DNA from: Thermoanaerobaculia bacterium
Lineage (GTDB): Bacteria > Acidobacteriota > Thermoanaerobaculia > Multivoradales > UBA5704
NCBI GenBank assembly: GCA_044226625.1
Contig: JBGAGQ010000012.1
Span: 32,001 to 96,000, forward strand
Length of the DNA stretch: 64,000 nt
Direction of reading: 5' to 3'
Shown here piece by piece: positions 28,427 through 44,715 of this stretch (the first letter of the stretch is position 1; every line of letters begins with the position of its first letter). The notes beneath the pieces are model-generated. The model saw only the letters and a program-made list of their open reading frames with translations. It was not told the DNA's origin and searched no databases. Position numbers and translations under genes: made by a program.

Positions 28427-29962
28427 ATGGAGCACGCTCAGACGGCTTCACGTTACGGAACGCTACTCTTCTTCCTCGCGGCCGTCTTCTTGCTCGCCGC
28501 CGCGGGTTTGAACAGCGCCATGGATTCGGCGGTCGACAAGCTGGATCGTCTCACTACTCGATACTCCGAAGCCGAGACCATGCTGGGTAAAGCCCGTTCA
28601 GCCAGGTTAAAAGGGGAAAACTTTTACTCGGCTGTGAGTCTCCAGATTCTCATTCAAGAGTGGTGGAGAAAGACGGACGAAAAGCTTCCTACGGATTACG
28701 GCGATAGTTTTGCAGATCGGCCGGTGAGCCTGCCAGGCTTCTCGCAGATGAAACTCACCGTAAATCCAGTGAGTGGTGACTATTGGACAAGGTTCTACCG
28801 ACAGAACGATCTTTACCGGGTCCCCCTGTTTCGGCAACTCGAAAAGGGGGCAGAAAGTTTCGGAAAGGAAGCAAAGAGGATCGATAGTCTTCCAGAGGCT
28901 CCGGAACAAAAGGCGCGGTTGCTGGATATCGCCCTGGTCCAGTCATTCCCGAGCAAGACGGCGCGCGAGATCTTGGCCGATGACTTCATGGACATTCTCG
29001 TCGAGAAGAAGAATGTCGATCGGAATATCAGATGCTGGATTGCACTGGACGATTGGCCCTGTCGGAGCGGCGGTACTGCTACGGGGGTTGGAGTCTCCTA
29101 TCTCCGGCGAGATGAACGATTTCTATGGGTTCAAGATTCTCGGGATCACATCTTCAACTCGCTGGGCATCGCAAAGAATCAGGACGAAGCCGAGGCGCTG
29201 CTGAAAGAAGAGTGGATCAGGGCCCATGACGCACTGCTCGAGTTCAAGATACCCATGACGCAGGTGAGCCTTCCGGGTAGCGGCTTGACTCTTTCGGTAG
29301 GCGACGTGCTCTTGCTCGCAGGCCCGCTCCTCATCTATTTCCAGATTCTTTTCCTGGTATCCAAGGAACGGATGGCGGTGTCCGGATCGGAAAAAGAGGC
29401 CTTCGTCTTTCCACAGTTCTCAGCACCGGACGATCCGCTGGTTTCGCTCAAGGGCACGAGGCTGGCAGGATTCAGCGAGAGAATCATCTGGTTACTCTTC
29501 TTGGTCGCGCCGATCGCGGTTCTAACGATCGCCGTGGTGACGCGGTACGATTTCATGAGTCTTTCAGCGTACAGCGGCCTTCCCTGGATCAAGAAGATCG
29601 AATACAGCAGGTCTTCCGACGGGTTTTCAGCTCTTCTCGACCTCATCAACCTCGGCTTTCTCGGCATCGCGTTGGTCGTCGCGATTCGGCTCACGACCCT
29701 TCACCGGTCAGCCAGTCGGTACATTTCGGATCGCAATTACCGATCCCTGACGGTTCTGTTGTTGAACCTCTTCACCGTCACTTTCCTCGCCGCTGGTTGG
29801 AGTCTTCTCGGTAGAGAAATTCCGGTGTGGGGGACCTATTTCCTCGCCTTCGCTGTTCTCTGGTTGGCGGGATTCCTCGTGGCTTTGGTTCGAGGTGCTT
29901 GGACGATGGCACTTCTTTCGGCTGGCGGATTCGCACTGGGGTTATCCATTCTCATTGGCTAG
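28427..29962 (+). CDS. Hypothetical multi-TM membrane protein (lower GC, likely acquired)
   Basis: Long ORF with an N-terminal TM, a soluble domain and several C-terminal TMs. GGAGAG RBS. Confidence 0.65.
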   Translation: MEHAQTASRYGTLLFFLAAVFLLAAAGLNSAMDSAVDKLDRLTTRYSEAETMLGKARSARLKGENFYSAVSLQILIQEWWRKTDEKLPTDYGDSFADRPVSLPGFSQMKLTVNPVSGDYWTRFYRQNDLYRVPLFRQLEKGAESFGKEAKRIDSLPEAPEQKARLLDIALVQSFPSKTAREILADDFMDILVEKKNVDRNIRCWIALDDWPCRSGGTATGVGVSYLRRDERFLWVQDSRDHIFNSLGIAKNQDEAEALLKEEWIRAHDALLEFKIPMTQVSLPGSGLTLSVGDVLLLAGPLLIYFQILFLVSKERMAVSGSEKEAFVFPQFSAPDDPLVSLKGTRLAGFSERIIWLLFLVAPIAVLTIAVVTRYDFMSLSAYSGLPWIKKIEYSRSSDGFSALLDLINLGFLGIALVVAIRLTTLHRSASRYISDRNYRSLTVLLLNLFTVTFLAAGWSLLGREIPVWGTYFLAFAVLWLAGFLVALVRGAWTMALLSAGGFALGLSILIG

Positions 29963-30161
29963 CCTGGAGCTGCGCGAGGAAGAGCGCGGCGGGCCCCCTC
30001 CGCCGGAGATCGAATCCGGCGTTCTCGCGCCGGAGTGTCTGGAAATGCTCCAGCGCCCGCGGAAGCGGAGCCTCTGACGCCCACCTTCCCCACGAACACC
30101 ATCGTGTTTATGCTCCGGAAAGGAGAAGACACGAGGGTGTTTCTCCAGGAGGGCGCTCAAC

Positions 30162-31455
30162 TTCTACTTTCCGCGACAGTTCGACGAGGTGTTGGCCGCT
30201 TGGGCTCGGGGGGCGGGCCGCAAGCCTCTGTTTCCTCGAGCTCAACCTGGAGCGATACGCGGACCTCTCCCTCGTGCGCTCCTGCCGTTCTGCGGACGAT
30301 CTTCTGAAAGCTCTCGCCGCGCGCCACAACGTGACGGCCTTCCCGGAGCGGACGCTCCTGTTCCTCGATGAGGTGCAGGAGAGCTCCGAGGCGATCCAGT
30401 GGCTGCGTTTCTTCCATGAGGACCATCCGGAAATCGCTGTGGTGGCGGCCGGCTCGCTCCTGGAAGTCCGATTGGAAGAGCGGGGATTCTCCTTCCCCGT
30501 GGGCAGGGTGACCTTCCGGACGCTGCGCCCTTTGAGCTTCCAGGAGTTTCTCAAGGCGTCCGGTAAGGACGTGCTCGCCGAGGGGATCCGCGTGGGGGAG
30601 GTCCCCGGCTCCGAGACCGCGGTGCCGCTCCATACCCAAGCGCTCTCCCTGCTCCGGGACTACCTGCTGGCCGGGGGCATGCCCGAGGCGGTCCGGACGT
30701 GGGTCGAATCGGGCAGCCCGGCCGCCGTCCGGCAGGTCCAGTCGGATCTGATTCAGGCGTTCGCGGAGGACATCCAGAAATACCGGAGCGGCGTCTCGGC
30801 ATCCGACCTCGAGGCCGCGTTCGACAATCTGCCGCACCATTACGGTCTGCGATTCCGCTACGAGAACTTCGCCCCGGGCTTCAAATCGCAGCGGATGAAG
30901 GACGCCCTCGGCAAGCTCGAAGCGGCGCTGCTGATCGCGCGCGTATGGCCCACGCACTCGGTCCAACTGCCGCTCGCCGTCCGGGCCAGATCCGCGCCGA
31001 AACTCCTGCCGCTCGACGTCGGTCTCGCGCTCCATACCCTCGGCACGGGATACCAGGCGCTCGCGTCCGAGCCCCTGGAGCGCCTGTTGGACGGCCGGCT
31101 CGCCGAGATCTTCGTCGGCCAACAGCTTCTCGCCTCTCGATCGGCCGCCGCCGAGCCGCTGTTCTTCTGGGTGAGCGAATCCGCGCGAGCCAACGCCGAG
31201 ACCGACTATCTGTTACCCGGCGCGGGCTATCCCGTACCCGTCGAGGTCAAGGCGGGGGCTGCCGGATCGCTCAAGTCGCTCCACCAGTTCCTCTTCCGGG
31301 CGGGCTGCGAGCTCGGGATCCGCCTGCACGCGGGGACCTACGGCGATGAGCGCCTCAAGGTAAAGATGCCGGAGGGGGAACTGGCGTACCGCCTGATCTC
31401 GCTCCCGATCTATCTGGCGGAAGAGGTGGCGGCTTGGTTGAGTCGGAGAGAATAG
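30162..31455 (+). pseudogene. AAA_14 + DUF4143 ATP-binding protein with Walker A deleted/frameshifted
   Basis: N-terminal LAAWARGAGRKPL in one frame joins directly to FLELNLER in another frame, and the GxRQxGK[ST] segment is absent. The rest is intact (LFLDEVQ, AAGSLL, GGMPEAV, PVEVKAG). Confidence 0.75.
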
Positions 31456-31492: not shown

Positions 31493-31975
31493 GTGACCGA
31501 CCCATTCCAGAACGTAGCCGACGAAGAACGGCGACTGGTTGAGAAGCTGGCCAAGATCGAAGCGCTGTTCGCCCGCGGCGCGACGGCGGGCGAGCGCGCC
31601 GCGGCGGAAAGCGCCAGAGAACGGATTCGCGCGCGCCTTCTGACTTTGGAGAAGATCGAGCGGCCGGTCGAGTACCGGTTCACCCTGGCCGACGGCTGGT
31701 CCCGACGGTTGTTCACCGCCCTTCTTCGTCGCTACGGGCTACGTCCTTTCCGCTATCGACGGCAACGCCACACGACCGTGATGGTCCGGGTGACGGCGAA
31801 ATTTGTCGACGAGGTTCTGTGGCCCGAGTTCCAGCAGCTCGACGCCACCCTCCGAGCTCACCTGCAGGCTGTGACGGATCGCATCGTGACCGTGGCGATC
31901 CACGGCGAGACGGCTGAGGCGGAGGAGCGTGCGGGGGAACCCTCACCGTCCGACGGGCAGCGGTCGCTCGGATAG
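31493..31975 (+). CDS. Conserved hypothetical protein
   Basis: KLAKIEALFARGATAGERAAA helical N-terminus and RRYGLRPFRYRRQR. AGGAG RBS. Confidence 0.7.
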   Translation: MTDPFQNVADEERRLVEKLAKIEALFARGATAGERAAAESARERIRARLLTLEKIERPVEYRFTLADGWSRRLFTALLRRYGLRPFRYRRQRHTTVMVRVTAKFVDEVLWPEFQQLDATLRAHLQAVTDRIVTVAIHGETAEAEERAGEPSPSDGQRSLG

Positions 31976-32075
31976 CCAACCTTCCGGGGGCGGAACCGGC
32001 GCGGCTTCCGGTGTGTGCTCTCTCGGCCACCCGGTGTCGCAACTCTCCTATCCGCGCCATGGTATGGTCTCTGCC

Positions 32076-32342
32076 ATGAAAAGCGCCATTCAGGCGACCA
32101 TGGACTCTGCCGGCCGACTCGTACTGCCGAAGGCGATCCGTGAAGAAGCCGGAGTCCTGCCGGGAGTCGTTCTTCACCTTCGAGTCCACGAGGGCAAGAT
32201 CGAGATCGAACCTGCGCCCCGAGAAGTGAAGATCGTCCAAAAAGGACCCCTGCGGATCGCCGAATCGGTCGGCGATGGGCCAAAGCTCGGACAGGAGACA
32301 GTCGACCAGGTTCTCGGAGAAATCCGTGGAAGCGGGCGGTAG
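32076..32342 (+). CDS. vapB: AbrB/MazE-type antitoxin
   Basis: MDSAGRLVLPKAIREEAG swapped-hairpin signature. Overlaps the PIN gene. Confidence 0.85.
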   Translation: MKSAIQATMDSAGRLVLPKAIREEAGVLPGVVLHLRVHEGKIEIEPAPREVKIVQKGPLRIAESVGDGPKLGQETVDQVLGEIRGSGR

Positions 32343-32802
32343 CGAGGGGCTTGAGGCGACCGCTCTCGATGCGAGCGTAATCGTCGCCGGACTGCTCTCC
32401 TGGCACCAGCGTCACGAAGCTGCCGTCGCGGCACTCATGGAGCTGCTTGAACGCGATGCACGTCTCGTGCTCCCCGTCTACTCTCTGGTCGAAGCCTACG
32501 CCGTGATGACTCGCCTTCCGCCGCCTCATCGGTTGAGCCCGAAGAACGCTTTCGAAATCCTCTCGGGCTCGCTGCGGGGCCGGTGCACCCTCGTGAGCGT
32601 GGAGAGCGCCGAGGCCTGGGCGCTGATCGGCGACTTGAGCGAGCGATCCGTCGCGGGAGGAATGACCTACGATGCTCTGATCACAGCCGCCGCCCGCAGA
32701 GGCGGCGCGAGTCGAATTTTGACCTTGAACCGTAACCACTTCGAAAGGGTCAAGGCTAAGGGTCTCAGGATTTCCGTCCCGGGCGAGGACGAGACGTCCT
32801 AA
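32326..32802 (+). CDS. vapC: PIN-domain toxin
   Basis: LDASVIV, EAYAVMTR, YDALI and LTLNRNHF. Confidence 0.87.
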   Translation: MEAGGSEGLEATALDASVIVAGLLSWHQRHEAAVAALMELLERDARLVLPVYSLVEAYAVMTRLPPPHRLSPKNAFEILSGSLRGRCTLVSVESAEAWALIGDLSERSVAGGMTYDALITAAARRGGASRILTLNRNHFERVKAKGLRISVPGEDETS

Positions 32803-32848: not shown

Positions 32849-33538
32849 CTACTGCGATTTAACCGTCGACGGCTCGGGGAGAGCGCGGTCTCCCTCGGGC
32901 CGGTCCTCCGCCGGCCGGGCGGGCGGCCGGGGGGGCAGTTGCAGCGGCTCACCCAGAGCGCTCTCCATCAGGGTGAGCACGCGCTGGTCGATCATCGCGG
33001 TGATGCGGCCGAGGCGGTTCCAGATCGCGCGGGATTGCTCGTCGCGCTCCGCTTCGGTTTCTTCCGGCACCTCGGGGACGTCGAGGTCGCTCAGAAGGTC
33101 GAGCATTCCTTCGCCGAGAGGCTTCTTGATCCGTGGCTTGTCGAGCTTCGGAAACAGCACGGCGAAGAAGTCCTCATACGGGACGTCGATCGCGTCGAGG
33201 ATCGCGAGCACCTCGTTGAGCGGAAGCCCCTCGCGCTTGAAGAGAAGGTGCGCGGTGAATCCCCGGTTCTTGTGGATCATCCGGTCCACTTCGCGCCATC
33301 CATAGCCGGCGGTTCGGATCAGACGCTCCAGCAGCTTGCGCGTCCGAGCGATCACCGCCTCGGCTTCCGGTCCCGGGGTGGCGGCCGGTTCGGGGGTCGT
33401 CCGACTCTCCGTACCTTTCCGGGGGCGGCCTTTGGCGCGAGGTTTCTTCGCGTTCGCTTCGGTCGCATCGGCGACGGTCGAGGCGGGCGCGGGTGCGGAC
33501 TCAGTCGGCCCTGGGCGGTCGCTCATGGGCTTGAGCAT
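32849..33538 (-). CDS. Putative XRE-like HTH DNA-binding protein
   Basis: LIRTAGYGWREVDRMIHKNRGFTAHLLFK...LNEVLAILDAIDVPYEDFF resembles an HTH_3 helical pattern, with low-complexity termini. Confidence 0.55.
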   Translation of the reverse strand: MLKPMSDRPGPTESAPAPASTVADATEANAKKPRAKGRPRKGTESRTTPEPAATPGPEAEAVIARTRKLLERLIRTAGYGWREVDRMIHKNRGFTAHLLFKREGLPLNEVLAILDAIDVPYEDFFAVLFPKLDKPRIKKPLGEGMLDLLSDLDVPEVPEETEAERDEQSRAIWNRLGRITAMIDQRVLTLMESALGEPLQLPPRPPARPAEDRPEGDRALPEPSTVKSQ

Positions 33539-33575
33539 ACTGCATTCTCGGGAAGGCGCAGAATGGTTCGGCAGG

Positions 33576-33613
33576 AAAAAGGGGCGGCCCGCGCCGTGCG
33601 GACCGCCCCAAAA
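33576..33613 (-). terminator. Rho-independent terminator downstream of the 145-aa gene
   Basis: GGGGCGG...CCGCCCC stem with an adjacent A5 run, read as U5 on the minus strand. Confidence 0.7.
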
Positions 33614-33653
33614 CGAAAGCCAGCCATTCGCCTGCGCAGGTGCCGATTCCTGC

Positions 33654-34091
33654 TCAGGCGTTACCCTGCTCCGCCGCCATTTCCTGCAAGATGGCCGCGC
33701 GGATCGCGTCCTTCTCCTTCTGCTTCTGTTCCTGCTCCTTGAGCTTCTGCTCCTCGGGCTTCCGTTTGCCTCGGCGGCTGTTCACCTCCGGGTTCATGCC
33801 GTACGTCACCAGGACGGGATTGTTGAATCCGACGTGGGCGCCGACCAGCGCCGAGAGCCGGCGATGGACCGCCCCTCCCCGCACCGCGAGATCGCGGCGC
33901 GTCTTGACCGCCACTCGCAGGTTGCCCCGCTGCGCCTCCACCGTGGCATGCGCCGGCCGGAGCTCGAGAAGGATCGTCTTCAAATCCAGGAACAGCTCGC
34001 TGGTTCCCGGGTACTTCGCAAGGTCGGGCTCGAGGTTGTCGAGCGTCGTCTGGTAGGTGTCGATGCGGTCGGAGTACGAACTGGATTTCAT
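33654..34091 (-). CDS. Hypothetical helical protein (145 aa)
   Basis: Clean ORF with an AAGGAAG RBS and its own terminator. Helical pattern ending ...HVGFNNPVLVTYGMNP plus a basic tail. Confidence 0.75.
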   Translation of the reverse strand: MKSSSYSDRIDTYQTTLDNLEPDLAKYPGTSELFLDLKTILLELRPAHATVEAQRGNLRVAVKTRRDLAVRGGAVHRRLSALVGAHVGFNNPVLVTYGMNPEVNSRRGKRKPEEQKLKEQEQKQKEKDAIRAAILQEMAAEQGNA

Positions 34092-34270
34092 GGTCTAATC
34101 TTCCTTGTCGTGTTAGGTAAAGTCCGGGCTCGGTGCCAGCCGGCCCGGACGAGTTTTCAGCGTTTCAGGCCCGCAAAGGCCTTCCCGCCGATTCCTACGA
34201 GCAGCGTTCCCAGAAAGCGAGTTTCGGGGTCCGAGAGCGACTCTCGGCGCCCGCCGCCCCGTTTTCGGGA

Positions 34271-34510
34271 CGGGAAGTGATTTCCTGGCTTGGGAAGTGA
34301 CTTCCTGGTCTGGCGAATGACTTCCTGGTCTGGGAAGTGACTCTCTGGCTTGGGAAGTGATTTCCTGGCTTGGGAAGTGACTTCCTGGTCTGGCGAATGA
34401 CTTCCTGGTCTGGGAAGTGACTCTCTGGCTTGGGAAATGACTTCCCGGCTTGGGAAGCGACCTCCTGTCCTGGAAAGTGACTTCCTGACCTGGGAAGTGA
34501 CTTCCTGGAC
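34271..34510. repeat. Tandem array of 12 x 20-bp units with palindromic core GGAAGT-G-ACTTCC
   Basis: Units start every 20 bp from 34271 with consensus TGGGAAGTGACTTCCTGGYY. Units 1-4 recur as units 5-8 (80-bp higher-order repeat). Confidence 0.95.
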
Positions 34511-34570
34511 CAGAGAGCGCCGTTCGGGAAGAGAACGCCGCTTGCGGAGCCGGCCGAACCGTAGCGCTCG

Positions 34571-34927
34571 TCATACCGGCGTACCGGCGGCCGCTTTCGT
34601 CCAGCGCGAGGCGCTGAGCGCTTTGGCGACCGAAAGATCGGCTTCCGTCACGCCCCGGGCGCCGCCCAGCTGGACGACGACCAGGTTGTCCCGAACGGCG
34701 ATCATCACGGGCGTCTTCTCGTCGCGGCAGGTCTCCACCACGAACGGCACGAAACGATCCGCCTCTTTGGCCGAGCTCAGGCGGAAGCTGCACTCGACCC
34801 GCTGCCGCGGCGGCCCCAGGGACCATCCGGGCAGCGAGAGCAACGCGATTTGGATTCGCTCGGACTTGAGCCGGGACGGCGGCTGCGATTTCGTTCCGAA
34901 GGGAGGGGTAGCGGACTTCTGAGTCAT
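34571..34927 (-). CDS. Degenerate pterin-4-alpha-carbinolamine dehydratase (PCD/DCoH)-like protein
   Basis: L...I...L..LPGW...F.L......F...GVTEADLSVAKAL fold pattern, but the catalytic HHP motif is absent. AAAGGAG RBS. Confidence 0.6.
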   Translation of the reverse strand: MTQKSATPPFGTKSQPPSRLKSERIQIALLSLPGWSLGPPRQRVECSFRLSSAKEADRFVPFVVETCRDEKTPVMIAVRDNLVVVQLGGARGVTEADLSVAKALSASRWTKAAAGTPV

Positions 34928-35620
34928 GGGTGCTGCTCCTTTTCCACATTGGCGCGTCGGCGGAATGCCGGCGAACCTCACACGCGCACGGAGCGGCTCG
35001 GGGGTTCCGTTTCCAGCTCTGTTGCGCGCGCTTCCGGTGGGCATTCTGCGCATTCAATCTGTTCTGTCAAGAGCAGATTCGTCGGCGTCGACAGAATTTC
35101 CGCTCTCCGTGCAAGTTAAATCCGGAGGGAAGAGTCTCTGCGGATTGAGTTTGCTCGCGGTCCGCTTCGGCCCTCAGGAAGGCCTCTCGGTTCGCTGAAT
35201 CCAACCCAAATTCGCGGAATCGAGCATTCCGGGGCGGAGCGGCGCCTCGCCGGAGGGTGCCTCCCGCCGTTTCAAAACGCTCTCAAGCCGCCGCCGGCGG
35301 ACTCACTTACCCGGGTAGATCCTTGATTCCGCCGAGAGGTCCGTGCGGGGGTGCGTTCAGCGGATGCGCTGCCGACCAAGAGAAGCGAACGCAAAACGAG
35401 TCGGTATTCACCAGATCGAGAATAAGATGTCGAAATCAGTAATTCGAGCGGCGACCTGGGGAACCCCGAATTCTCTGCGAGGGGACACCTCAACGACCCC
35501 CACTCGCCGCACGGAACTCGCGATAATCGCGAACCAACTCGTGACGCATCCGCGTTGCCACCGCGGGCTCCGGGGCCAATTCCGACTCCGCGACGGCCCG
35601 CGGGCCAGGGAGATTCCTCC

Positions 35621-35953
35621 ATGTCGGCATCACTGCGAAACACCCCGAATCCCGCGCCGCACTCCCCCTCGAAAAAGTTGAGCAAAGCGACAACAGGCGG
35701 CCGCCGCCGTGCGGCCGCCGCCGCCGTGACCCTGCTTCTCGCCACGGTACCCGCTGCCGCCGCACCAGGCCGGTCGGAGAGCTCCTCGGAAACTTTGCAC
35801 GCGGCGGTTGCCCGACTCTGGGAGCGGATCGCCGCTGCGCCGAGCGTGTTCGCGGGGCTTTGGGAGGAAGTTGGGGCGGCGATCGACCCCCACGGAACAC
35901 CGAGTTCCGATCCTCCGCCGACTTTTGGAGCGGCTATCGATCCTCACGGATAG
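35621..35953 (+). CDS. Small secreted protein with duplicated C-terminal GAAIDPHG motif
   Basis: GGGAG RBS. RRR followed by a hydrophobic stretch ending PAAAA. GAAIDPHG occurs twice, the second copy at the extreme C-terminus. Confidence 0.7.
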   Translation: MSASLRNTPNPAPHSPSKKLSKATTGGRRRAAAAAVTLLLATVPAAAAPGRSESSSETLHAAVARLWERIAAAPSVFAGLWEEVGAAIDPHGTPSSDPPPTFGAAIDPHG

Positions 35954-36128
35954 ACGACTACCCCGTGGCCCTGCTTTGCAGGCGGCGATGTTCGTCGCCG
36001 CCTGCTTGAGGCGAGGAGTCCGAAATTGCGAAGCTCGCGCTGATCGTATTCCCCAGCTCGTGCCTTGTGCGAAAATACGCCCAGCCCCGAAAATCTCGGA
36101 AGCAATCCTTCCAGCGGTGCGAGGAAGC

Positions 36129-37469
36129 ATGGCCGAACACCCCGACTTGACGGAATCTGAGCTGGCCGCCTTGCGCAGGGGGGAGCTCCCTCCAGGCCCG
36201 CGCGGTCTCTTGATCGCCATCCACCTTCGCGGCGAGTGTTCGGTCTGCCTCAAGCGATGGGGCCACCGGCTCGCTCCGGTCTTGAGTCCCTGGTGGGAAG
36301 GAGATGAGTCACCAGAGAGCAGCGACTACATGGACGTCCGTTTCGACTTCGCGGTCCGGAGCGCACTCAAGAAGGTCCAAAAGCGAGAGCCGGAGATCGC
36401 AGCCGCGCTTGCCCAAGCGTCGCAGGAGGTGGACGGAACGGCCGTCCTGTCGCATGGCCGACTTCCTCGCGGCACGGCCGAGCTTCAGTGGGCCCGCGCA
36501 CAGAAATGGCTCGCCGAGGCACGGTCGAATCGGCGCCAGGCGCCGGAGGAGTACCAGGTCATCGCAGGCCTAGCCGCCGCCTACGCGCATCGCTTGAACG
36601 AGGAAGATCACGCGCCAGGGGACGTAGCCGATCTTCAAGCGCTCACGCTGGCCGAAGCAGCGAACGGCCATCGCCGCGCCCGCCGATTCCCTCAGGCCGA
36701 GGCGCTCTTTGCCCAGGCGATGGAGAAGATCCGGGAGGGAACCCAGCTCCGGTCGTTCGCCTTGGCGATCGCTAGTCAATCGGCAAGCTTGTTGATGGAC
36801 CAGCGAAATTTGAACAGCGCGGTGCTCCTGCTGCGCCGTACTTTCAAGGGGTACGAATCGCTCGGTCTTCGGCAGGAAGCTGGCGAAGAGGCTTTGGTGT
36901 TGGGGTGCGCCTACCACTACATGGGCCGTAGTGAGCTCGCGCTCGAAGCGTTCCTCCAGGCGCTCGAGCGGCTGGACGGTGCCCGCGATCCGCAGTTGGC
37001 GGTCGCGGTGATCACCAACATCCTCCTCGCCTACCTCGACCTGGAGCAGTGCTCGGCCGCTCAGCGACTTTTCCCCAAGGCCGCCGAAATGCACCGGCGG
37101 TTCGGAACCGCGCTAGATCGCCTCAAGCTCGACTGGCTGGGCGCGAAACTTCTGGCTGGCGAAGGGCGCCTGGTGGAAGCCGGCCGCGCCTACGAAGACC
37201 TCATCGCCGACTTCGAGCGCCAGGGCCAATACGCCGAATCCGCGGTCGTCCGCCTCGAGCTAGCCGGGCTCTACCTCCAGCGCCAACGCTTCGACCGCGC
37301 CCAGATCGTGCTCGAAGACGTACGCGAAGTGTTCCAGTCGATCGGCATCCACCGCGAAGCCTTCGCCGCCCTCCTGCTGCTCAAACAGGCCGTCGTCGGA
37401 GAATGCGCCACGATGGAGATGGTGCGGAAGGTGGTCGCGGCGATGGAGGTGGGGGGGAAGGGGCGGTAG
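36129..37469 (+). CDS. TPR-repeat protein with N-terminal zf-HC2-like motif
   Basis: HLRGECSVC in the N-terminus, followed by TPR-like helices (LGCAYHYMGRSELALEAF; LAGLYLQRQRFDRA). GAGGA RBS. Confidence 0.75.
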   Translation: MAEHPDLTESELAALRRGELPPGPRGLLIAIHLRGECSVCLKRWGHRLAPVLSPWWEGDESPESSDYMDVRFDFAVRSALKKVQKREPEIAAALAQASQEVDGTAVLSHGRLPRGTAELQWARAQKWLAEARSNRRQAPEEYQVIAGLAAAYAHRLNEEDHAPGDVADLQALTLAEAANGHRRARRFPQAEALFAQAMEKIREGTQLRSFALAIASQSASLLMDQRNLNSAVLLLRRTFKGYESLGLRQEAGEEALVLGCAYHYMGRSELALEAFLQALERLDGARDPQLAVAVITNILLAYLDLEQCSAAQRLFPKAAEMHRRFGTALDRLKLDWLGAKLLAGEGRLVEAGRAYEDLIADFERQGQYAESAVVRLELAGLYLQRQRFDRAQIVLEDVREVFQSIGIHREAFAALLLLKQAVVGECATMEMVRKVVAAMEVGGKGR

Positions 37470-37636
37470 ACCCTGAACGCCGCAGAGAGATCGCGGCAAC
37501 GCTAACGAGAGGTTGAAATCGTGCCTAATCTGCTGCGCGAGATTCGCGCGGCTTCTGTCTGATAGAGCACGGGCGGAGGATTTTGGCGTACAATTATTCA
37601 TCTCCCATCTAAAAGCCCGCCCGGGGGCAAGCTCTA

Positions 37637-40489
37637 GTGACGACGATTTTCCACAGCGCCTTTTGGGCGCACAGCCTCACGCTCGAAGCTCCGCCCGGAA
37701 CGATCGAAAGCCTTTCACGTTCCCTCACAAGCGCTCGTGTGGACCTCAATCCTCATCAGGTCGACGCAGCTCTCTTCGCCATCCAGTCTCCCCTGTCTCG
37801 CGGTGTAATTTTAGCCGACGAAGTGGGCCTCGGGAAAACAATAGAGGCAGGCCTGGTAATTGCTCAGCGCTGGGCTGAACGTCGGCGCCGCATATTGCTG
37901 ATTGTGCCTGCAACCTTACGAAACCAGTGGCAGCAGGAACTCTCAGACAAATTTCAGCTACCAGTCCGCATTCTTGATGCTGCCACATATCGGGCGTTTA
38001 GTGCACCAGGAGAGGCAAATCCCTTCGACAGCCAGGATTCAATTCTGCTGTGCTCGTACCAGTTCGCAGCAATAAAAGCCACGGATATGAATGCTGTCGA
38101 GTGGGATCTCGTTGTCTTAGATGAGGCCCACCGGCTACGCAATGTGTACAAGGGAAACTCTAAGATTGCCCAATCCATAAAGGATTCTCTCGCCCTAAGG
38201 CGAAAACTGCTACTAACCGCCACGCCACTCCAAAACTCGCTTCTCGAACTGTACGGTCTTGTGAGCCTTATCGACGACTATGTCTTCGGCGACATCGCCA
38301 ACTTCCGCGAACAGTTCATGCGCGGTACCAATGAGAGCCGACGGAACGAGAATTTACGATTGCGAATTCAGCCGTTGTGCCGTCGGACACTGCGGAAGCA
38401 GGTTCAAGAGTACGTGCGGTTCACTAAGAGAGTTCCCATCACCCAGAGATTTGTTCCGAGCGATGCAGAACAGAGTCTTTATGACAGCGTTTCGGCGTAC
38501 CTCCAGCGCGAGGAGTCATACGCCCTACCTAGTGGACAGCGCACGCTCTTGACGATGGTTCTTCGGAAGCTACTCTCCTCCTCCACCTACGCCATCGCGG
38601 GTACGCTTCACCGAATGATCAATCGGCTTGAGGCAGTTGAGCAGCAAGCTTCGGAGCAACTCCTCGATGAGGTGGATTTCGAGGCGATACGCGAAGTCAT
38701 TGACGAATGGAACGACCTCCCACCGCCCAACGCGAGTGAGGCGAATTCCTCGATTGACTTAAAGTCCCTTCGCACCGAACTCGACGAGCTACGGCAATAT
38801 GCGGCTGCGGCCGATCGTATTCCGACCAACTCCAAAGGCGACGCGCTTCTGCTCGCGCTCCCGTTAGCCCTTGAAAAGGCGGAGTCTCTAGGCGCGCCTC
38901 GCAAAGCTGTACTATTCACCGAATCCAGGCGCACACAAACCTACCTTGCTCTGTTGCTGGCAGGCAACGGCTATGCCGGGCAGATGGTTCTGATCAACGG
39001 CGACAATAGTGATCCAGATTCACGCGCAATCTTCGAGAACTGGCTCGAGCGCCATCGCGGTTCCGAAAGAGTCTCAGGCTCGCGAGCCGTCGATACCAAG
39101 GCAGCGCTTGTCGAGGAGTTCCAAGATCGCCGGACACTCCTGATCGCGACGGAGTCCGCCGCCGAAGGAGTAAATCTCCAGTTTTGTTCACTCGTCGTCA
39201 ACTACGATCTCCCTTGGAATCCCCAGCGCGTCGAACAGCGGATCGGCCGTTGTCATCGCTATGGCCAATTGCATGACGTTGTCGTGGTGAATTTTCTGAA
39301 CGATCGCAATGCCGCAGACCAACGGGTCTTTCGCTTGTTGTCAGAAAAATTCAAACTCTTTGAAGGGGTGTTCGGCGCAAGCGACGAAATCCTAGGGGCA
39401 GTGGAGTCTGGCGTCGACATTGAGCGTCGGATTATGGACGTGTATCAGACTTGCCGAACACCCGAAGCCATCGCACAGGCGTTTGATCGACTACAGGAAG
39501 ATCTCGAACCTCAGATTGGCGAGACGATCAAGGCAACGCGACGCGCGATTCTCGAGAACTTCGACGATGAGGTGCAAAGGCGCCTTAGAGGAGTAAAAGA
39601 CGAAGCCGATAGAATGTTGGTAGGCCACCAGCAGTCGCTCTGGTGCCTTGCGAAACACGAACTGGCCGGCAGGGCATCCTTTGATGAGTTGGACAAGTTC
39701 ATGACTCTACTAGATGGTACGTCGCGATCCTACTACCTCTCGTGGCCCGTAGCTGATAAGAAGGACGCAATATTCTTCCACCCCAGCCACGAAATTGCGT
39801 CGCAACTCATAAGTGCCGCGAAATCGAGAACCCTCAAGCCAAGGCATCTACGTTTCGAGTATAGGTCTCCACCGCGGTATGTCGCGCTAGAGCCCTACCT
39901 CGGCTGTAGCGGATGGCTAGAACTAACCCGCTTATCCATCGAACAACGCGGTACGGAAGAGCACCTCATTGCCGCTGCGATTCTCGACGGCGGAGCGCCC
40001 CTCCCTCCAGACCTAGCAATCAGGCTTTTTGACCTTGAGGCTAAAGTGGAAGACCCTGCACGCGGCGTTGCGCCAGTCTTCGACGAGATTCGAACTCGTG
40101 AGGCCGATCGCGTTGCAGCCACTGCCCGCCGACGCCACGAGCAGGCGCTCGCGGTGGAGGAATCTAAGCTCGAGCAATGGGCGGAGGATGCAAAGGGTGG
40201 ACTTGAACGCGATCTAAAGACCCTCGATAGCGAAATTCGGGAGGTGAGAAGGGCAGCCCGCAATGCACCAGCATTGGCCGACAAATTGGACGGCCAGCGT
40301 CGTATCCGCGACTTAGAGGGGCGCCGAAACCGCAAGCGCAGGGAGTTGTTCGAGCAGCAAGACAGAATTGATGCGAAGAGAGACGAGCTGATACTTGCAA
40401 TCGAAAGACAGCTCGATCTCCAGATCAAGGCCGTTCAAGTTTTTTCCATCTCTTTCACAATACACGATTCGCGCAGAGAGGAAAGGTGA
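37637..40489 (+). CDS. SNF2-family helicase (RM/defence-island type)
   Basis: LNPHQ, LADEVGLGKT, LDEAHRLRN, LTATPLQN, EGVNLQ and YDLPWNPQRVEQRIGRCHRYGQ, with a C-terminal coiled coil. Confidence 0.93.
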   Translation: MTTIFHSAFWAHSLTLEAPPGTIESLSRSLTSARVDLNPHQVDAALFAIQSPLSRGVILADEVGLGKTIEAGLVIAQRWAERRRRILLIVPATLRNQWQQELSDKFQLPVRILDAATYRAFSAPGEANPFDSQDSILLCSYQFAAIKATDMNAVEWDLVVLDEAHRLRNVYKGNSKIAQSIKDSLALRRKLLLTATPLQNSLLELYGLVSLIDDYVFGDIANFREQFMRGTNESRRNENLRLRIQPLCRRTLRKQVQEYVRFTKRVPITQRFVPSDAEQSLYDSVSAYLQREESYALPSGQRTLLTMVLRKLLSSSTYAIAGTLHRMINRLEAVEQQASEQLLDEVDFEAIREVIDEWNDLPPPNASEANSSIDLKSLRTELDELRQYAAAADRIPTNSKGDALLLALPLALEKAESLGAPRKAVLFTESRRTQTYLALLLAGNGYAGQMVLINGDNSDPDSRAIFENWLERHRGSERVSGSRAVDTKAALVEEFQDRRTLLIATESAAEGVNLQFCSLVVNYDLPWNPQRVEQRIGRCHRYGQLHDVVVVNFLNDRNAADQRVFRLLSEKFKLFEGVFGASDEILGAVESGVDIERRIMDVYQTCRTPEAIAQAFDRLQEDLEPQIGETIKATRRAILENFDDEVQRRLRGVKDEADRMLVGHQQSLWCLAKHELAGRASFDELDKFMTLLDGTSRSYYLSWPVADKKDAIFFHPSHEIASQLISAAKSRTLKPRHLRFEYRSPPRYVALEPYLGCSGWLELTRLSIEQRGTEEHLIAAAILDGGAPLPPDLAIRLFDLEAKVEDPARGVAPVFDEIRTREADRVAATARRRHEQALAVEESKLEQWAEDAKGGLERDLKTLDSEIREVRRAARNAPALADKLDGQRRIRDLEGRRNRKRRELFEQQDRIDAKRDELILAIERQLDLQIKAVQVFSISFTIHDSRREER

Positions 40490-40698
40490 TGACGATAGAT
40501 GAGCCAGCGGGACTTTTTGACCTCACTCCGAGCCAACGTTTAGCGAAAGAGATCGCGCAGGCGCTAGTAGAGGAAGGTCTTGTCGAGAAGGCGAAGAGCC
40601 AAAAACTGGAGTTGGGCCTTGCTGAGGGTTCTCTTGGTCCTGGCGATTGGAGAGTCTTTGTCGAGGTGGCCGCCGACCGTGAGCGGAAATGCCAATGA
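40486..40698 (+). CDS. Small hypothetical protein coupled between helicase and ATPase
   Basis: Overlaps both neighbours. TPSQRLAKEI...GDWRVFVE. Confidence 0.7.
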   Translation: MMTIDEPAGLFDLTPSQRLAKEIAQALVEEGLVEKAKSQKLELGLAEGSLGPGDWRVFVEVAADRERKCQ

Positions 40699-43010
40699 AA
40701 ACTTTCCCGGGCATTAACCGTCTTGTTGTAGCAGGGTTTCGAGGAGCTACGTCGCGGCTTGAGATGGAACTCTCATCTGAACAGCCGTTCGTGGTGCTGT
40801 TTGGTGAGAACGGCAGCGGAAAGTCAACCTTGGTTGACGCGATCGAGTTCGCGCTGACGGGGACAAAAGGTTCCCTTAGCGACTTCAAGTCGACCTCGAT
40901 CAAACACCTGGCTACCACCGGCACAGATTCTTCACCGCTAAGCGTGCTCCTCGAAGCGGGCGGAAAGACATGGTCCGGCAGGCTTGAGGGAAGCAAGCCT
41001 GAGCTTATGGGGCCGAAAGCGCGGCCTCGCATCGACATTCTCAGGCGGTCCCGTCTGACGAAGATTGTCGCTGCTGGCCCCACCGAACGCTTTGAGCAAC
41101 TCGATAAGTTTGTGAACTGCGACCGAATCGTAAAGAGTGAAGAGGGACTCTCGGTGGCAGACAGGGAAGCAAAGAATCGCCTGGAGGAAGCGAGCAAGAC
41201 AATCGAGGAATCGAGGAACTCCCTCCGTGAACTCTGGGATGAACAAGGGAGGCCGGACGGCGACGCGCTGACCTGGGCGAGAAAGGAATCCTCATTGCCG
41301 TTTGACGGTGCCTCCGGAGGAGACTCGGTCCACCGATGGTTAACAACCTGTCAGCGGCTACTTGGCGATTTAGTTAGAGCTTGGGACAACAGAAAGGATG
41401 CCGAATCGAACCTGGCTGCAAGCACCTCCTCTCTGAGATCGACAGACTTTCAGGCGGGCGGCGACTCGGCACCAGACGAATCAGATCTAATCCGAATATT
41501 GTCAGCGGCACGTGATTATTTTAAGAGTCAGGTCTTGGTTGACGCTTGCCCGCTCTGTCAGCAGGCTGTCAGAGTGGGTGAACTTCGCGCGCAAACCGAT
41601 AACCGCCTTAGAGCGTTGCAGGAACAAATCGACCGGCTTGAGAGACGATCGGGGCTTCAAACGAAGATAGAACGGCACCAGGTAGAGCTGAATCTCGCTG
41701 AATCCGCAGTGTCCGAAGCCGGAAAGGAGATTTCCCGCCAGACGGCAGAGCCGCCACTTTCCGTCGATGGTGAAATCGTGGGCGATCTTGTGAGGGTTTC
41801 CACCGCCGGAAAAGGAACTGACTTCGCCCCGGGTTCTTCGATTCGCCTAACCGCCGAGAGCTTAGGCAGGAGGATTGAGGAAGCCGCTCGTGCGATTTCG
41901 AGGGGCATCGAGCGTCGCAACCAAGTCGCAAGAGTGTGGAGACAACACGAGAAGGCTCTTCAGGAAGGCAAGCGGCTGGAAGACGAGGGCAAGAGGCTTG
42001 CGCGCTGCCTGCAACTCGTGCGTCGTAAACGACTGGAATTTGTGGACACTCTTCTCAGAGATGTCGCAGGCGAGGTCAACCGACTATATGGTGAGATTCA
42101 TCCAGGTGAAACAGAATTGGGTGGTGCGCGGTTCTACCTCGATCCAAAACAGCGAGCCTCGCTGCATCAAGTGGTGAAGTTCGGCAACCAGGATGAGTTA
42201 CCTCCCCAGGCGTGCTTTAGCGAGTCCCACCTATTAACCCTGGGTTTCTGTTTGTGGCTAGCGCTCGCAAAGCGTGAAAGACCTCAGGAAACGGTCATCG
42301 TGCTCGACGATGTGGTATTTGCCATTGACGGACCGCATATGAAGAGGCTGGCAGCGTTGATTTCTGTTGAGCGCAAGCATTTCGCTCAAGTGATTCTTAC
42401 GACTCATTCTAGACGCTTTCTTCGCTACTTGCGCGACGGGATAGCGCCCAGCGGCAATATGGATCTCCGCACTCTTAGATGGAGCCTCAGCGGTGGAATC
42501 GTTGAAGGCTCAACCCCACATCTCGCAGCAGATCTAGAGTCTGCGTTATCGAATCCATTGATTGACAGGCAGGCAATCGCCTCGAAAGCAGGCAATCTCC
42601 TTGAGATAATACTTCGACACTTTGCCTTGCTCTATCGGCGGCGAGTTCCATTTGCGGAACCGAATGAGCCCAATCTCGCTGAACTTTTTGATTCTTGGAC
42701 TGTCAAAGAGGCCAACCGCGTTGAAATACAGAGGAGGTCCGAAGACCAGAGCTATTCCCCGATTGGAAACCTCGGAGCGATCCTGACGAGGTTGCGAGAC
42801 CTAAGAGACGTTCGTAATCTTGTCGGTGCGCATGCAAATGCGGAGGCGGACGAGGTTTCAGACGCCGAGGTTCAGGAGTTTGGCAGAACAGTCCTAGAGC
42901 TTTGGCGACTAGTTGTTTGCTCTTGCGGACAGATTCCGCAGAAGTCGAAAAATGGAGCCTTCTTCTGTCATTGCCGATGCCTCAGCTTACGGCCAGATCG
43001 TGTTGACTGA
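40689..43010 (+). CDS. SMC/Rad50-like ABC ATPase with zinc hook and putative C-terminal HEPN
   Basis: GFRG, Walker A GENGSGKS, CPLC hook within coiled coil, signature FSESH, Walker B VLDDV, H-loop TTHS, and C-terminal RNLVGAH with a Cys cluster. Confidence 0.85.
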   Translation: MPMKTFPGINRLVVAGFRGATSRLEMELSSEQPFVVLFGENGSGKSTLVDAIEFALTGTKGSLSDFKSTSIKHLATTGTDSSPLSVLLEAGGKTWSGRLEGSKPELMGPKARPRIDILRRSRLTKIVAAGPTERFEQLDKFVNCDRIVKSEEGLSVADREAKNRLEEASKTIEESRNSLRELWDEQGRPDGDALTWARKESSLPFDGASGGDSVHRWLTTCQRLLGDLVRAWDNRKDAESNLAASTSSLRSTDFQAGGDSAPDESDLIRILSAARDYFKSQVLVDACPLCQQAVRVGELRAQTDNRLRALQEQIDRLERRSGLQTKIERHQVELNLAESAVSEAGKEISRQTAEPPLSVDGEIVGDLVRVSTAGKGTDFAPGSSIRLTAESLGRRIEEAARAISRGIERRNQVARVWRQHEKALQEGKRLEDEGKRLARCLQLVRRKRLEFVDTLLRDVAGEVNRLYGEIHPGETELGGARFYLDPKQRASLHQVVKFGNQDELPPQACFSESHLLTLGFCLWLALAKRERPQETVIVLDDVVFAIDGPHMKRLAALISVERKHFAQVILTTHSRRFLRYLRDGIAPSGNMDLRTLRWSLSGGIVEGSTPHLAADLESALSNPLIDRQAIASKAGNLLEIILRHFALLYRRRVPFAEPNEPNLAELFDSWTVKEANRVEIQRRSEDQSYSPIGNLGAILTRLRDLRDVRNLVGAHANAEADEVSDAEVQEFGRTVLELWRLVVCSCGQIPQKSKNGAFFCHCRCLSLRPDRVD

Positions 43011-43539: not shown

Positions 43540-44715
43540 TCAGCGCCCTTCGCCCCCGCCCACCCCCCGCCGAGCCAACATCTCCCGCTCCTCCGCCAAC
43601 CATGCGCGTAGCTGCTGCTCCGTAGGCAGCTTTGTGAGGTACCGGGACACGAAGATCTGCCGCTCCAGGTTCCCGGTCGCGTAGTGGACCTCCTCGGCGT
43701 CCTTGTCGGCGCAGAGGATGATTCCGATCGGCGGGCTTTCGCCTTCGAGGCAGACGTTCTCCCGGAGATAGCCGAGGTAGAAGTTCATCTGCCCCGCGTC
43801 CTCGTGGCCGAAGGAGCCGATTTTGAGGTCGATCGCGACGAGGCAGCGCAGGCGGCGGTGGAAGAAGAGCAGGTCGATGAAGTGGTGGCGGCCGCCGACG
43901 GTGACTCGATATTGGCGGGCGAGGAAGGCAAAGTCTCCGCCCAGCTCCAGCAGGAACTGCTGGAGGTGCTCGACCAGGGCCGACTCGAGGTCGGCTTCGG
44001 AATAGACGGGCTTTTCGGGCAGGCCGAGGAACTCGAGCACGTACGGGTCGCGGATGTTGACGCGCGGCGTGTCGGGGAGGCGCCCTTCGTTCGCGAGCGC
44101 GAGGACCGCCTCGCGGTCGCGCGACAGGCCCGCGCGCTCGAAGAGCATCGAGTCACGCTGCCTTTTGAGCTCGCGCAGGCTCCACCGGTGCGCCAGCGCC
44201 TGCGTCTCGTAGAAGGCTCGGGCGAGAGGATCCCCCACGCGCGACAGCTCGAGCAGGTGTGAGAACGACAGCTCGCCGCGCAGGCGGGCCATCCAGTCCT
44301 CGTCCTGCCAGGTCATCGCCCCGGCCTCCGTGGGTAAGGCCGGGAGGGCGGTTCCGGGCGGGACCGCGCCCAGGTCGAGCGGCAGGCGAGATTCACCAGA
44401 CGGTGTCTGGCGAATGCCCAGACGCGGCCAGGTGAGAGCGATCTGCCGATAGTTGCGGAGGTTCGAAGAGCCGAGCCCGGCGATGCCGCGGCTTTCGAAC
44501 GCCTGCGCGAGCGAGGGGATCAGCCTCTCGCCGTAGCGCGCCCGATCCGCCCCCTGCTGCTCGTAGGTCACGATCCAGAAGCCGATCAGCCAGTTCCGGA
44601 GCGTCAGGATCTCGTCGATCGATCGCGCCGCCGCCTCCCGCGACCGGGATTGCAGCGCGGACAGGGCGTCGACCAGAAGGCCGAAATTCGACCAGGGCTC
44701 GAGCGCGGGCGTCAC
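43540..44715 (-). CDS. YhcG/DUF1016 family PD-(D/E)xK nuclease-domain protein
   Basis: NWLIG...RARYG, LSFSH, WSLRELKRQ, RDPYVLEFL, IDLLFFHRRLRCLVAIDLK and GQMNFY. Start approximate. Confidence 0.93.
   Translation of the reverse strand: MTPALEPWSNFGLLVDALSALQSRSREAAARSIDEILTLRNWLIGFWIVTYEQQGADRARYGERLIPSLAQAFESRGIAGLGSSNLRNYRQIALTWPRLGIRQTPSGESRLPLDLGAVPPGTALPALPTEAGAMTWQDEDWMARLRGELSFSHLLELSRVGDPLARAFYETQALAHRWSLRELKRQRDSMLFERAGLSRDREAVLALANEGRLPDTPRVNIRDPYVLEFLGLPEKPVYSEADLESALVEHLQQFLLELGGDFAFLARQYRVTVGGRHHFIDLLFFHRRLRCLVAIDLKIGSFGHEDAGQMNFYLGYLRENVCLEGESPPIGIILCADKDAEEVHYATGNLERQIFVSRYLTKLPTEQQLRAWLAEEREMLARRGVGGGEGR

Follow-up and report, generated by a model that had tools for sequence, protein, structure and literature searches.

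A Duplicated Gene Cassette with a Palindromic Repeat Array in a Thermoanaerobaculia Genome: A Possible Peptide-Responsive Regulatory Switch

Introduction

RRNPP systems (Rap/Phr, NprR, PlcR/PapR, PrgX and AimR/AimP) are described from Firmicutes and their mobile elements in the part of PMC10075063 drawn on here. A gene cassette that resembles them in its layout is located at positions 32849-37469 of a 64,000-nucleotide stretch of DNA from a Thermoanaerobaculia bacterium (assembly GCA_044226625.1, contig JBGAGQ010000012.1, positions 32,001 to 96,000 of the forward strand), which will be called the window. The cassette comprises genes for a probable helix-turn-helix (HTH) protein of the XRE type (HTH229), a small helical protein (p145), a PCD/DCoH-like protein (PCD118), a predicted exported peptide (pep110) and a TPR protein (TPR446), together with a tandem array of palindromic units. 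We report that this cassette is real and conserved, that it is one copy of a duplicated paralogous system and that it consists of two recurrent sub-modules. Our best reading, held tentatively and with somewhat less than even confidence, is that a peptide-responsive partner switch controls an XRE-type regulator which docks on the array.

Like the RRNPP systems, the cassette family places a gene for a propeptide with a signal peptide next to a gene for a cytoplasmic TPR protein (10/18 paralogs in the genome of the window, 11/14 in genome G014), as far as the covered part of PMC10075063 describes them. A conserved motif near the propeptide C-terminus and many paralogous pairs per genome are further common traits in the same portion of that source (PMC10075063). 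In contrast, the host here belongs to a diderm lineage, the Acidobacteriota, and the putative receptor carries an anti-sigma-type zinc domain and not an HTH or phosphatase domain; an XRE HTH is present in 4/22 paralogs. Homology to RRNPP-type receptors was not seen in Pfam and PDB searches. Apparently, the sensor half of the cassette is RRNPP-like in gene layout and not by homology of the receptor.

Zinc anti-sigma factors (ChrR, RsrA, RslA and DdvA) are a second point of comparison. The N-terminus of TPR446 is homologous to ChrR with its H/H/C/C residues aligned, and two TPR446 paralogs are co-encoded with ECF sigma genes. However, the motif of TPR446, H-x4-C-x2-C, is one residue longer than H-x3-C-x2-C. 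Judged by its sequence, TPR446 is soluble, and it possesses a C-terminal TPR domain; moreover, the window copy has no sigma gene within 4 kb, its recurrent neighbor being an XRE-type gene. In the portion of PMC7826278 considered, TPR domains extend ECF42 sigma factors at the C-terminus and are also present in a FecR-like anti-sigma factor, in arrangements other than that of TPR446, and undetected soluble anti-sigma variants are called likely.

With iteron, ParR and omega arrays the arrays described below have in common that phased direct repeats lie beside, often upstream of, a gene for a small protein and that each system has its own repeat. Iterons recognized by Rep, parC recognized by ParR and the heptads of omega are repeat arrays bound by plasmid proteins. 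In contrast, the arrays of the cassette family lie on the chromosome, and a genome has dozens of such systems. Rep or partition ATPase genes were not found nearby, and copies with the same unit are dispersed beside unrelated genes.

The PCD-like protein also has described counterparts. DCoH/PCD is the dimerization cofactor of HNF1, and RAF2 is a non-catalytic PCD-like assembly factor of Rubisco. The PCD118 family likewise has a PCD fold without catalytic histidines and is encoded beside one particular helical protein. The putative partner, p145, is however unrelated to HNF1 or Rubisco.

In Streptomyces, 10 bldB paralogs lie next to whiJ and abaA paralogs according to the part of PMC10294661 consulted. 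Both there and here a lineage-specific XRE regulator is combined with small partners in about ten or more copies per genome (PMC10294661, same part). The protein families are unrelated, and the covered part of PMC10294661 describes no repeat arrays or exported peptide genes. Among regulator sets present in some ten copies per genome, the whiJ-bldB-abaA sets come closest to the cassette.

A published description of a cassette of the present kind was not found in the literature, the supplementary files of the cited papers lying outside the coverage. Literature searches for tandem repeats of Thermoanaerobaculia and for DCoH/PCD in bacterial transcription found nothing relevant, and only REP elements turned up for palindromic intergenic tandem repeats in Acidobacteria. 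For anti-sigma/TPR/secreted-peptide systems of Acidobacteria, titles and abstract openings contained no such system.

Results and Discussion

Organization, Conservation and Duplication of the Cassette

Scans for open reading frames (ORFs), repeats and Pfam families recovered all six features claimed in the initial annotation at or near their proposed positions. The features of the locus are as follows.

32849-33538, minus strand: HTH229 gene (229 aa), probable XRE/Cro-type helix-turn-helix protein, candidate binder of the array
33609-33581, minus strand: intrinsic terminator between p145 and HTH229, 12-pair stem with 11 GC pairs, then TTTTT
33654-34091, minus strand: p145 gene (145 aa), encoding a small helical hairpin with a basic tail and central to the array module
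34092-34161, minus strand: conserved 5' leader of p145, with the hairpin CCGGGC...GCCCGG (34124-34148) and a Shine-Dalgarno site
34272-34508, no strand: tandem array, 12 units of 20 bp, core GGAAGTgACTTCC and a variable 7-bp spacer
34571-34927, minus strand: PCD118 gene, non-catalytic PCD/DCoH-fold protein, likely partner of p145
35043-35070, minus strand: sigma-70-like promoter match upstream of PCD118, TTGACA-16-CAGAAT, 10/12 positions, a consensus match only
35621-35953, plus strand: pep110 ORF, small protein predicted to be exported, C-terminus with two GAAIDPHG motifs
36129-37469, plus strand: TPR446 gene, N-terminal zinc anti-sigma-type domain and C-terminal TPR domain, predicted to be cytoplasmic
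37532-37552, plus strand: terminator-like hairpin downstream of TPR446, 9-pair stem and T-rich tail

As claimed before, p145 has a terminator of its own, the 12-bp stem with a T5 tail at 33609-33581. The promoter match upstream of PCD118 is the sole one in 5 kb, compared with a mean of 0.4 in shuffled sequences.

The initial annotation had named joint conservation of the five genes and the array as a check. It was found for the whole cassette in one other genome of the genus and for most of it in a second. The former contains a collinear cassette (loci L049 and L107, apparently one assembly) with a protein identity of 60-75%; this locus will be called the ortholog. There, an array of likewise 12 units occupies the corresponding site, and its core, GGAAGTC[A/G]CTTCC, is the same. 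The remaining genome, the third with the cassette (G007), contains the TPR gene, the peptide gene, a 13.6-unit array and p145 at a contig end. Its core GGAAG-CCG-CTTCC keeps the arms and has a changed center.

The genome of the window (G000; 6.6 Mb, 133 contigs) was searched for paralogs with iterated hidden Markov model (HMM) searches of six-frame ORFs. It contains 19 p145-like, 11 HTH229-like and 6 PCD-like genes and about 22 TPR proteins of the size class of TPR446. The layout of a TPR gene divergent from PCD, p145 and HTH genes is repeated on contigs C76 and C109, and partial cassettes are located on C13, C46, C57, C51 and C124. A gene of the TPR family lies within ~4.5 kb at all six PCD-p145 loci (6/6). 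At three of them (C125, C76 and C109) an anti-sigma-type TPR gene is accompanied by a separate HTH229 gene, and at the others (C13, C46 and C57) an XRE HTH is fused to the TPR protein. The paralog on C13 has an ortholog of its own (L050), which retains that paralog's array unit CCAGATAGCCGCTATC.

HTH229-like genes are found within ~2.7 kb of an anti-sigma-type TPR gene on C125, C76, C51 and C124, and at ~4.7 kb on C109. On C51 the two genes are arranged tail to tail, 17 bp apart; on C124 they are separated by a 36-unit array. In G014, a complete genome of another genus (g8), an HTH-like and/or a TPR gene lies within ~4 kb at 10/16 p145 loci, with both present at 7. The usual layout there is TPR-> <-HTH [array] ->(PCD)->p145. 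The window, part of a soil-type Acidobacteria genome, contains a single copy of a presumably regulatory cassette that is specific to one Thermoanaerobaculia family and has been duplicated many times.

p145 and the Tandem Arrays

The AlphaFold2 (AF2) model of p145 (predicted local distance difference test, pLDDT, 92) comprises helices at residues 6-26, 31-87 and 112-144. It corresponds to a helical hairpin and a basic tail, with a further helix in the window copy. No relative was found in Pfam, NCBIfam, PADLOC or PDB searches. Fold searches returned generic helical hairpins only (Foldseek against PDB, E >= 1.8; VIA wide, Z <= 6.8), and a protein Atlas search yielded only unnamed clusters from Acidobacteriota. 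At E <= 1e-3 the family comprises 1312 clusters (50% identity) worldwide, of which 513 reach E <= 1e-10; stand-alone proteins of 110-165 aa make up almost all of them. Within the taxonomic family of the window's genome, 17/18 other genomes contain between 4 and 48 matches to p145, and matches were found in 0/12 genomes from other families of the order. A query for related loci with the single p145 sequence gave 3 loci.

The claimed array of 12 palindromic 20-bp units was found by Tandem Repeats Finder at 34272-34508 with a period of 20, 11.9 copies and 77% matches. A higher-order period of 80 bp was detected as well (2.9 copies, 92% matches). Each unit in register consists of the palindrome GGAAGTgACTTCC followed by the variable 7-bp linker; in half-site form the core reads GGAAG-N3-CTTCC in 12 phased copies. 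With at most one mismatch, the 13-mer core occurs 105 + 132 times in the genome versus 2 + 2 times for the reversed control.

The array is not the feature of a single cassette as which it had been presented. The genome contains approximately 100 arrays of at least 75 bp with a period of 20/21 or a multiple, 22.7 kb in total, in several unit families. Eleven arrays have the 20-bp GGAAGT[G/C]ACTTCC unit and three more a related 21-bp unit; examples of the unit families are GTCCCGTATTCTGGATATAC, GATAGCSGCTATC, GGAATCGTTTTTTAAC and CACCAGTGATCTGG. The arrays that share the cassette unit adjoin genes for an S41 peptidase, HsdM, a cation efflux protein, isoamylase, YebC, DAHP synthase, CheX and S9 and M20 peptidases, without a common theme. 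A CRISPR array was ruled out by the head-to-tail units, the 7-bp variable linker and the lack of unique spacers of repeat-like length. A shared anchor CCAG/CTGG across all arrays was dropped, as 0.7 per unit was reached in only 27/100 arrays. No claim of one cognate protein gene per unit family is made, single-linkage clustering having chained 42 arrays into one group.

Some further observations on the arrays may be added. Genome-wide examples are G000:C40:30180-30545, C124:7860-8606 and C81:13305-13721. Arrays of the 20/21-bp type are frequent between convergent genes and at contig ends, and their period of two helical turns is constant across arrays of otherwise unrelated sequence. A different kind of repeat is present at G000:C121:99455-102281, where units with a period of 60-63 bp containing GTCGCCCTCCGCGCGAGGGCGTGGATTGAAAC are CRISPR-like (repeat plus spacer), unlike the 20/21-bp arrays.

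The gene to which the array is linked most tightly is p145 and not the HTH gene. In the genome of the window 16/19 p145 paralogs have an array within 900 bp upstream at a loose threshold (period 20/21 or ~42, 63 and 84). In a stricter set 14/19 have one at most 600 bp upstream, compared with 71/3930 crude gene calls (odds ratio 152); the Fisher p of 1.6e-20 overstates the evidence because the p145 paralogs are related. In G014 all of the p145 homologs (16/16) are preceded by an array at a distance of 20-440 bp. The unit is different at each p145 paralog in the genome of the window and at each homolog in G014, where the core is mostly palindromic. Among other relatives an upstream array was found at 7/14 p145 loci. 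In genome G009 it was found at 0/4 loci examined; two of these four have an array ~170 bp downstream. The rule "array, then p145" would serve as an annotation marker for such loci even without a mechanism.

These associations are also what a different reading draws on, according to which p145, alone or together with the DCoH-like protein, binds the array. Each paralog would coat its own private repeat as a phased nucleoprotein filament, with HTH229 and the TPR protein as accessories. It would combine autoregulation at its own locus with action in trans on dispersed arrays of the same unit (chromosome organization, silencing or roadblocking), much as centromere-binding proteins such as ParR or omega do on their arrays of repeats. 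The tighter coupling of the array to p145 (14-16/19, and 16/16 in G014) than to HTH229-like genes (6/11), the private unit at each paralog, the existence of dispersed same-unit arrays, the long helical hairpin with its basic tail and the position of the G009 array behind the gene at 2/4 loci examined are all consistent with this possibility. On the other side, p145 has no recognizable DNA-binding fold, its best matches being the generic hairpins mentioned above. Furthermore, no Rep initiator or Par ATPase/adaptor family, as would accompany an iteron or centromere array, is found among the neighbors at 24.7-46.3 kb. We regard binding of the array by p145 as unlikely, and return to a docked XRE-type regulator as the favored reading.

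Comparison with the ortholog bears on whether the array has a role at all. The array core is identical at 129/156 positions (83%) and the spacers at 42/77 (55%, p 8.5e-6). As the register within a tandem array is partly arbitrary, the identity of the core measures conservation of the unit and not of individual sites. Non-coding stretches elsewhere reach 54-62% identity. Over the final 70 nt ahead of the p145 start, which include the GC-rich hairpin, 62/70 positions (89%) match the ortholog; on visual inspection, many of the 19 p145 paralogs have a comparable GC-rich hairpin in front. In this alignment the array core and the p145 leader are more strongly conserved than other non-coding DNA, the core also being better preserved than the spacers, and selection on both is visible. 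A sigma-54 promoter in the leader (TGGCAC, found by eye) was considered and dropped due to a misfit of the -12 element.

The arrays could alternatively be self-spreading or neutral minisatellites that tend to settle in certain intergenic gaps and to expand there, without a role in the cassette. Such an origin would account for some 100 arrays in several unit families, for the many that lie between convergent genes, for those that break the assembly at contig ends, for same-unit arrays beside unrelated genes and for the 80-bp higher-order repeat, which points to recent slippage or duplication. It would leave unexplained that site and core are the same in genomes which have diverged by ~30% in protein, with the core kept better than the spacers. 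The same holds for the 16/16 association with p145 in another genus, each time with a different unit, and for the enrichment upstream of p145 (odds ratio 152). A neutral or self-spreading origin is considered very unlikely.

Because of the promoter match upstream of PCD118 and the lack of a terminator between PCD118 and p145, the array may be transcribed. It could then act as RNA: a string of mini-hairpins, in concert with the conserved leader hairpin, would determine how the p145 message is processed, how stable it is or how it is translated. Most units are palindromic, and the 89% conservation of the leader hairpin also agrees with this idea. However, G:T versus A:C mismatches on the sense strand of the unit stems number 38 versus 26 (p 0.17), and therefore no strand-specific wobble signal is present. 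In RNA, stems as short as 4-7 bp with loops of 0-2 nt would be weak, and 5/22 arrays have no stem. Moreover, several G014 arrays are bordered by an HTH-like or PCD-like gene on one strand and by p145 on the opposite strand. An RNA function seems scarcely probable to us, and the array is treated in the following as DNA on which a regulator would dock.

A 314-aa ORF without a family hit (34113-35057, minus strand) crosses the array and also the PCD-like gene, the latter in a different frame. It is most likely an artefact of the high GC content and the repeat.

PCD118, a Non-Catalytic DCoH-Like Protein

PCD118 belongs to Pfam Pterin_4a (33.1 bits, cut-off 26) and scores far below the cut-offs of the NCBIfam equivalog models (25 vs 80). 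The catalytic His-His-Pro of PDB 2ebb_A aligns to T-P-V in PCD118. None of the eight PCD-like family members (0/8) has the His-His pair, and a motif LK[SA]ERIQ is invariant among them. Since the catalytic histidines are missing, PCD118 has the PCD fold but no dehydratase function, in agreement with the earlier description of a degenerate PCD/DCoH-like gene.

The PCD-like gene is located directly upstream of p145 in 6/6 copies in the genome of the window, and 20/21 PCD-like matches in four other genera lie beside a p145 match. A PCD fold without catalytic histidines that is constantly found beside p145 suggests that the PCD118 family acts as a protein-binding cofactor, with p145 as its likely partner.

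HTH229

Paralogs of HTH229 match HTH_31 (3/9, best E 1.7e-5) and HTH_3 (2/9). The best PDB profile match of HTH229 is HipB in the HTH register, a weak one with E 0.86. The protein is 68% identical to its ortholog. A relationship to sigma region 4 was rejected (hhalign probability 0.3). A comparison with the HTH of a fused HTH-TPR paralog gave the same register with a probability of 0.6, which is not evidence. PADLOC had no hit for p145, HTH229 or TPR446. An array is present at 6/11 HTH229-like genes.

The Sensor Module: pep110 and TPR446

The pep110 protein starts with a basic n-region, followed by a hydrophobic stretch rich in Ala and Leu and by an AAA|P site. Its C-terminus is ...GAAIDPHGTPSSDPPPTFGAAIDPHG, and the C-terminal segment includes ...WEEVGAAIDPHG. 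There is no Pfam hit for pep110. The GC content of its codon positions is flat (0.68/0.67/0.69), which is unusual here. The status of pep110 as a gene therefore rests on its reading frame, which is conserved in three homologs, and not on composition. Both GAAIDPHG motifs of the initial annotation are indeed present at the end of pep110, and the copy on C76 also has two; as a fixed feature the pair did not hold, the ortholog having a single motif.

The claim that TPR genes adjoin genes for small exported peptides, some with two motifs, was borne out beyond the window. In 10/18 anti-sigma-type paralogs a peptide ORF on the same strand stops 110-250 bp upstream of the TPR start. The products of these ORFs combine a basic n-region and a hydrophobic core with an AxA site, carry the motif G-x-x-[ILFT]-D-P-x-G at the C-terminus, and the exported small proteins of the family end in x[ILV]DPxG. 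In an alignment of 11 peptide sequences the Ala of the AxA site and D-P are invariant and the Gly is nearly so. Three members flank the motif with cysteines (C-IDPNG-xxx-C). In G014, 11/14 regions upstream of TPR genes contain an ORF that matches the peptide profile (E <= 5e-5 in a small set) and stops 43-140 nt before the TPR start.

In TPR446 Pfam finds generic TPR families, and no hydrophobic segment is present in the sequence. Its motif IH-LRGE-C-SV-C corresponds to H-x4-C-x2-C. Among the paralogs 18/22 begin with hP..L..f..g.L....r.v.rHL..GC..C. The other four, on C5, C13, C46 and C57, begin with an XRE helix-turn-helix (HTH_31/HTH_3) instead. H4, H32, C37 and C40 are invariant in 15/15 aligned members of the TPR446 family. 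A profile of the first 110 residues matches ChrR (PDB 2q1z_B and 2z2s_B) over residues 2-91 with E 2.2e-5. With a one-residue gap the four residues align to ChrR H6, H31, C35 and C38, which bind zinc in ChrR. Weaker matches of this profile are DdvA (E 0.086) and 3hug_B (E 0.44), and Pfam zf-HC2 is found in 5/15 family members (best E 1.5e-4).

Directly upstream of two paralogs on C76 (C76a and C76b) there are genes for ECF sigma factors (Sigma70_r2 and r4) with overlapping stop and start. Together with the ChrR and zf-HC2 matches this agrees with the initial assignment of the H/C motif to the zinc anti-sigma type. By these profile comparisons the N-terminus of TPR446 belongs to the zinc anti-sigma domain class. 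No sigma-like ORF was found within 4 kb of TPR446 itself, and 2/18 paralogs are co-encoded with an ECF sigma gene. Fold searches with a model of the TPR N-terminus (pLDDT 76.5) found nothing (Foldseek E >= 8.5; VIA Z <= 3.4), a long helix dominating the comparison. A complex of TPR446 with mature pep110 (residues 48-110), predicted from alignments of both and without controls, gave a median score of 0.29 against a mark of 0.32.

For the sensor half alone another explanation was considered. In this case pep110 would be the regulated product, for example a disulfide-loop or bacteriocin-like effector, or else cargo of a secretion system, the TPR protein becoming free when this cargo leaves the cell. 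The latter would be similar to the class II chaperones of type III secretion, whose co-activation of transcription sets in after departure of their cargo. An exported peptide and a cytoplasmic TPR protein would then be in different compartments without difficulty, and the loop C-IDPNG-xxx-C of several family members would fit a product. The row of genes at C76b, a doubtful peptide-like ORF followed by an ECF sigma gene and a TPR gene, is arranged as in sigma-controlled operons. Against this, the conserved part of the peptides is a short C-terminal motif. The order of the genes, with the peptide gene upstream of the TPR gene, is moreover that of propeptide and receptor in RRNPP systems in the covered part of PMC10075063. 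A role of pep110 as product or cargo is judged possible but rather unlikely, and sensing of the peptide by TPR446 is retained in the mechanism below.

Two observations were made beside these findings. At G000:C76:152000-159500 (L091), two anti-sigma-TPR genes are clustered with three ECF sigma genes and the gene for a sigma-54 activator. One of the sigma genes in this cluster is preceded by a possible peptide ORF (GIQIDADG).

Proposed Mechanism

In the favored mechanism, a peptide-responsive switch with an XRE-type regulator, pep110 would be exported and TPR446 would remain in the cytoplasm. The TPR domain would sense the peptide, either re-imported or as a precursor that has not yet been exported. 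The N-terminal anti-sigma-type domain would hold a transcription factor, which most likely is HTH229 at the locus of the window and an ECF sigma factor in two paralogs. After its release a dimer of the XRE-type HTH229 would occupy the 12 phased GGAAG-N3-CTTCC sites. Palindromic half-sites at a spacing of two helical turns suit dimeric HTH proteins such as XRE repressors. Because the array sites lie between the PCD-like gene and p145, docking would set the amount of p145 and probably that of HTH229 as well. Finally, p145 would work together with the catalytically dead DCoH-like protein. The parts, their families, their recurrent pairings and the conservation of the array core and the p145 leader are observed. 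The binding of the peptide to the TPR protein, of the TPR protein to HTH229, of HTH229 to the array and of the PCD-like protein to p145 is inferred, as are the direction of control and the role of p145.

Several observations weigh against this mechanism. Its main weakness is that the array is more faithful to p145 than to the HTH gene. Arrays are found at nearly all p145 loci and HTH genes at fewer, and hence the array tracks p145 more closely. An HTH229 gene is present at only 3/19 p145 loci in the genome of the window, and 6/16 p145 loci of G014 have no nearby HTH-like or TPR gene. Arrays with the cassette unit also lie beside unrelated housekeeping genes, and 5/22 arrays have no palindrome, that is, no stem of at least four pairs. 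The window's own HTH229 and the N-terminus of its own TPR446 gave no Pfam hit. On the sensor side 8/18 TPR paralogs have no recognized peptide gene, and the second GAAIDPHG copy is missing in the ortholog. Since pep110 is predicted to be exported and TPR446 to be cytoplasmic, an import step or a contact before export must be assumed. Moreover, we know of no precedent for an anti-sigma domain that binds an XRE protein.

If the mechanism is true, genetically encoded peptide signaling would extend beyond Firmicutes, and an anti-sigma domain would have been re-used to hold a regulator other than a sigma factor. Phased private repeat arrays would be a new way of giving paralogous regulators non-overlapping DNA addresses. 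The p145 family, with its 1312 clusters lacking annotation, and its DCoH-like partner would gain a first functional context. The cassette is a small set of parts suited to experiments in a heterologous host. In the boldest version, which we consider improbable, Thermoanaerobaculia would run dozens of parallel channels insulated from one another. Every channel would have its own exported peptide with a matching anti-sigma-TPR receptor, and its own array as a DNA address read by the set of HTH, p145 and DCoH-like proteins. RRNPP-like peptide communication would then be present in a diderm phylum for the first time, coupled to a new class of programmable repeat-array operators with copies scattered over the chromosome as targets in trans.

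Genomic Neighborhood

The cassette had been described as embedded in an accessory island. Its neighbors are in fact defence-type genes; the cassette itself is one member of a large paralogous family and not a single island-borne novelty. It is flanked by genes of the PADLOC classes PDC-S01 (AAA_14/DUF4143 ATPase, 29827-31455, E 3e-110) and PDC-S02 (YhcG PD-(D/E)xK nuclease, 43540-44835, E 8e-120). Adjoining HTH229, a MazE/AbrB-type antitoxin ORF overlaps a PIN-domain toxin ORF (31929-32802) in a VapBC-like pair.

On the other side of the cassette there are genes for a DrmD-like SNF2 helicase (37637-40489, PADLOC DrmD, E 1.7e-198) and an SMC-like (SMC/LmuB/mad3-like) ATPase (40689-43010). A search of the ortholog locus L049, which extends ~2.6 kb past the TPR gene, gave no match for the SNF2 protein; this search did not include the SMC-like gene. 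A 160-aa protein encoded at 31493-31975, without a family hit, is the best-conserved protein of the neighborhood with 87% identity in L049. As the SNF2 gene is unmatched in L049 while the gene for the 160-aa protein is present, the defence block is probably a later neighbor and not part of the cassette. The GC content drops to 0.53-0.57 at 38-43 kb. The low-GC block at 37637-43010, in which the helicase and the SMC-like ATPase genes are accompanied by a 70-aa ORF, is defence-system-like.

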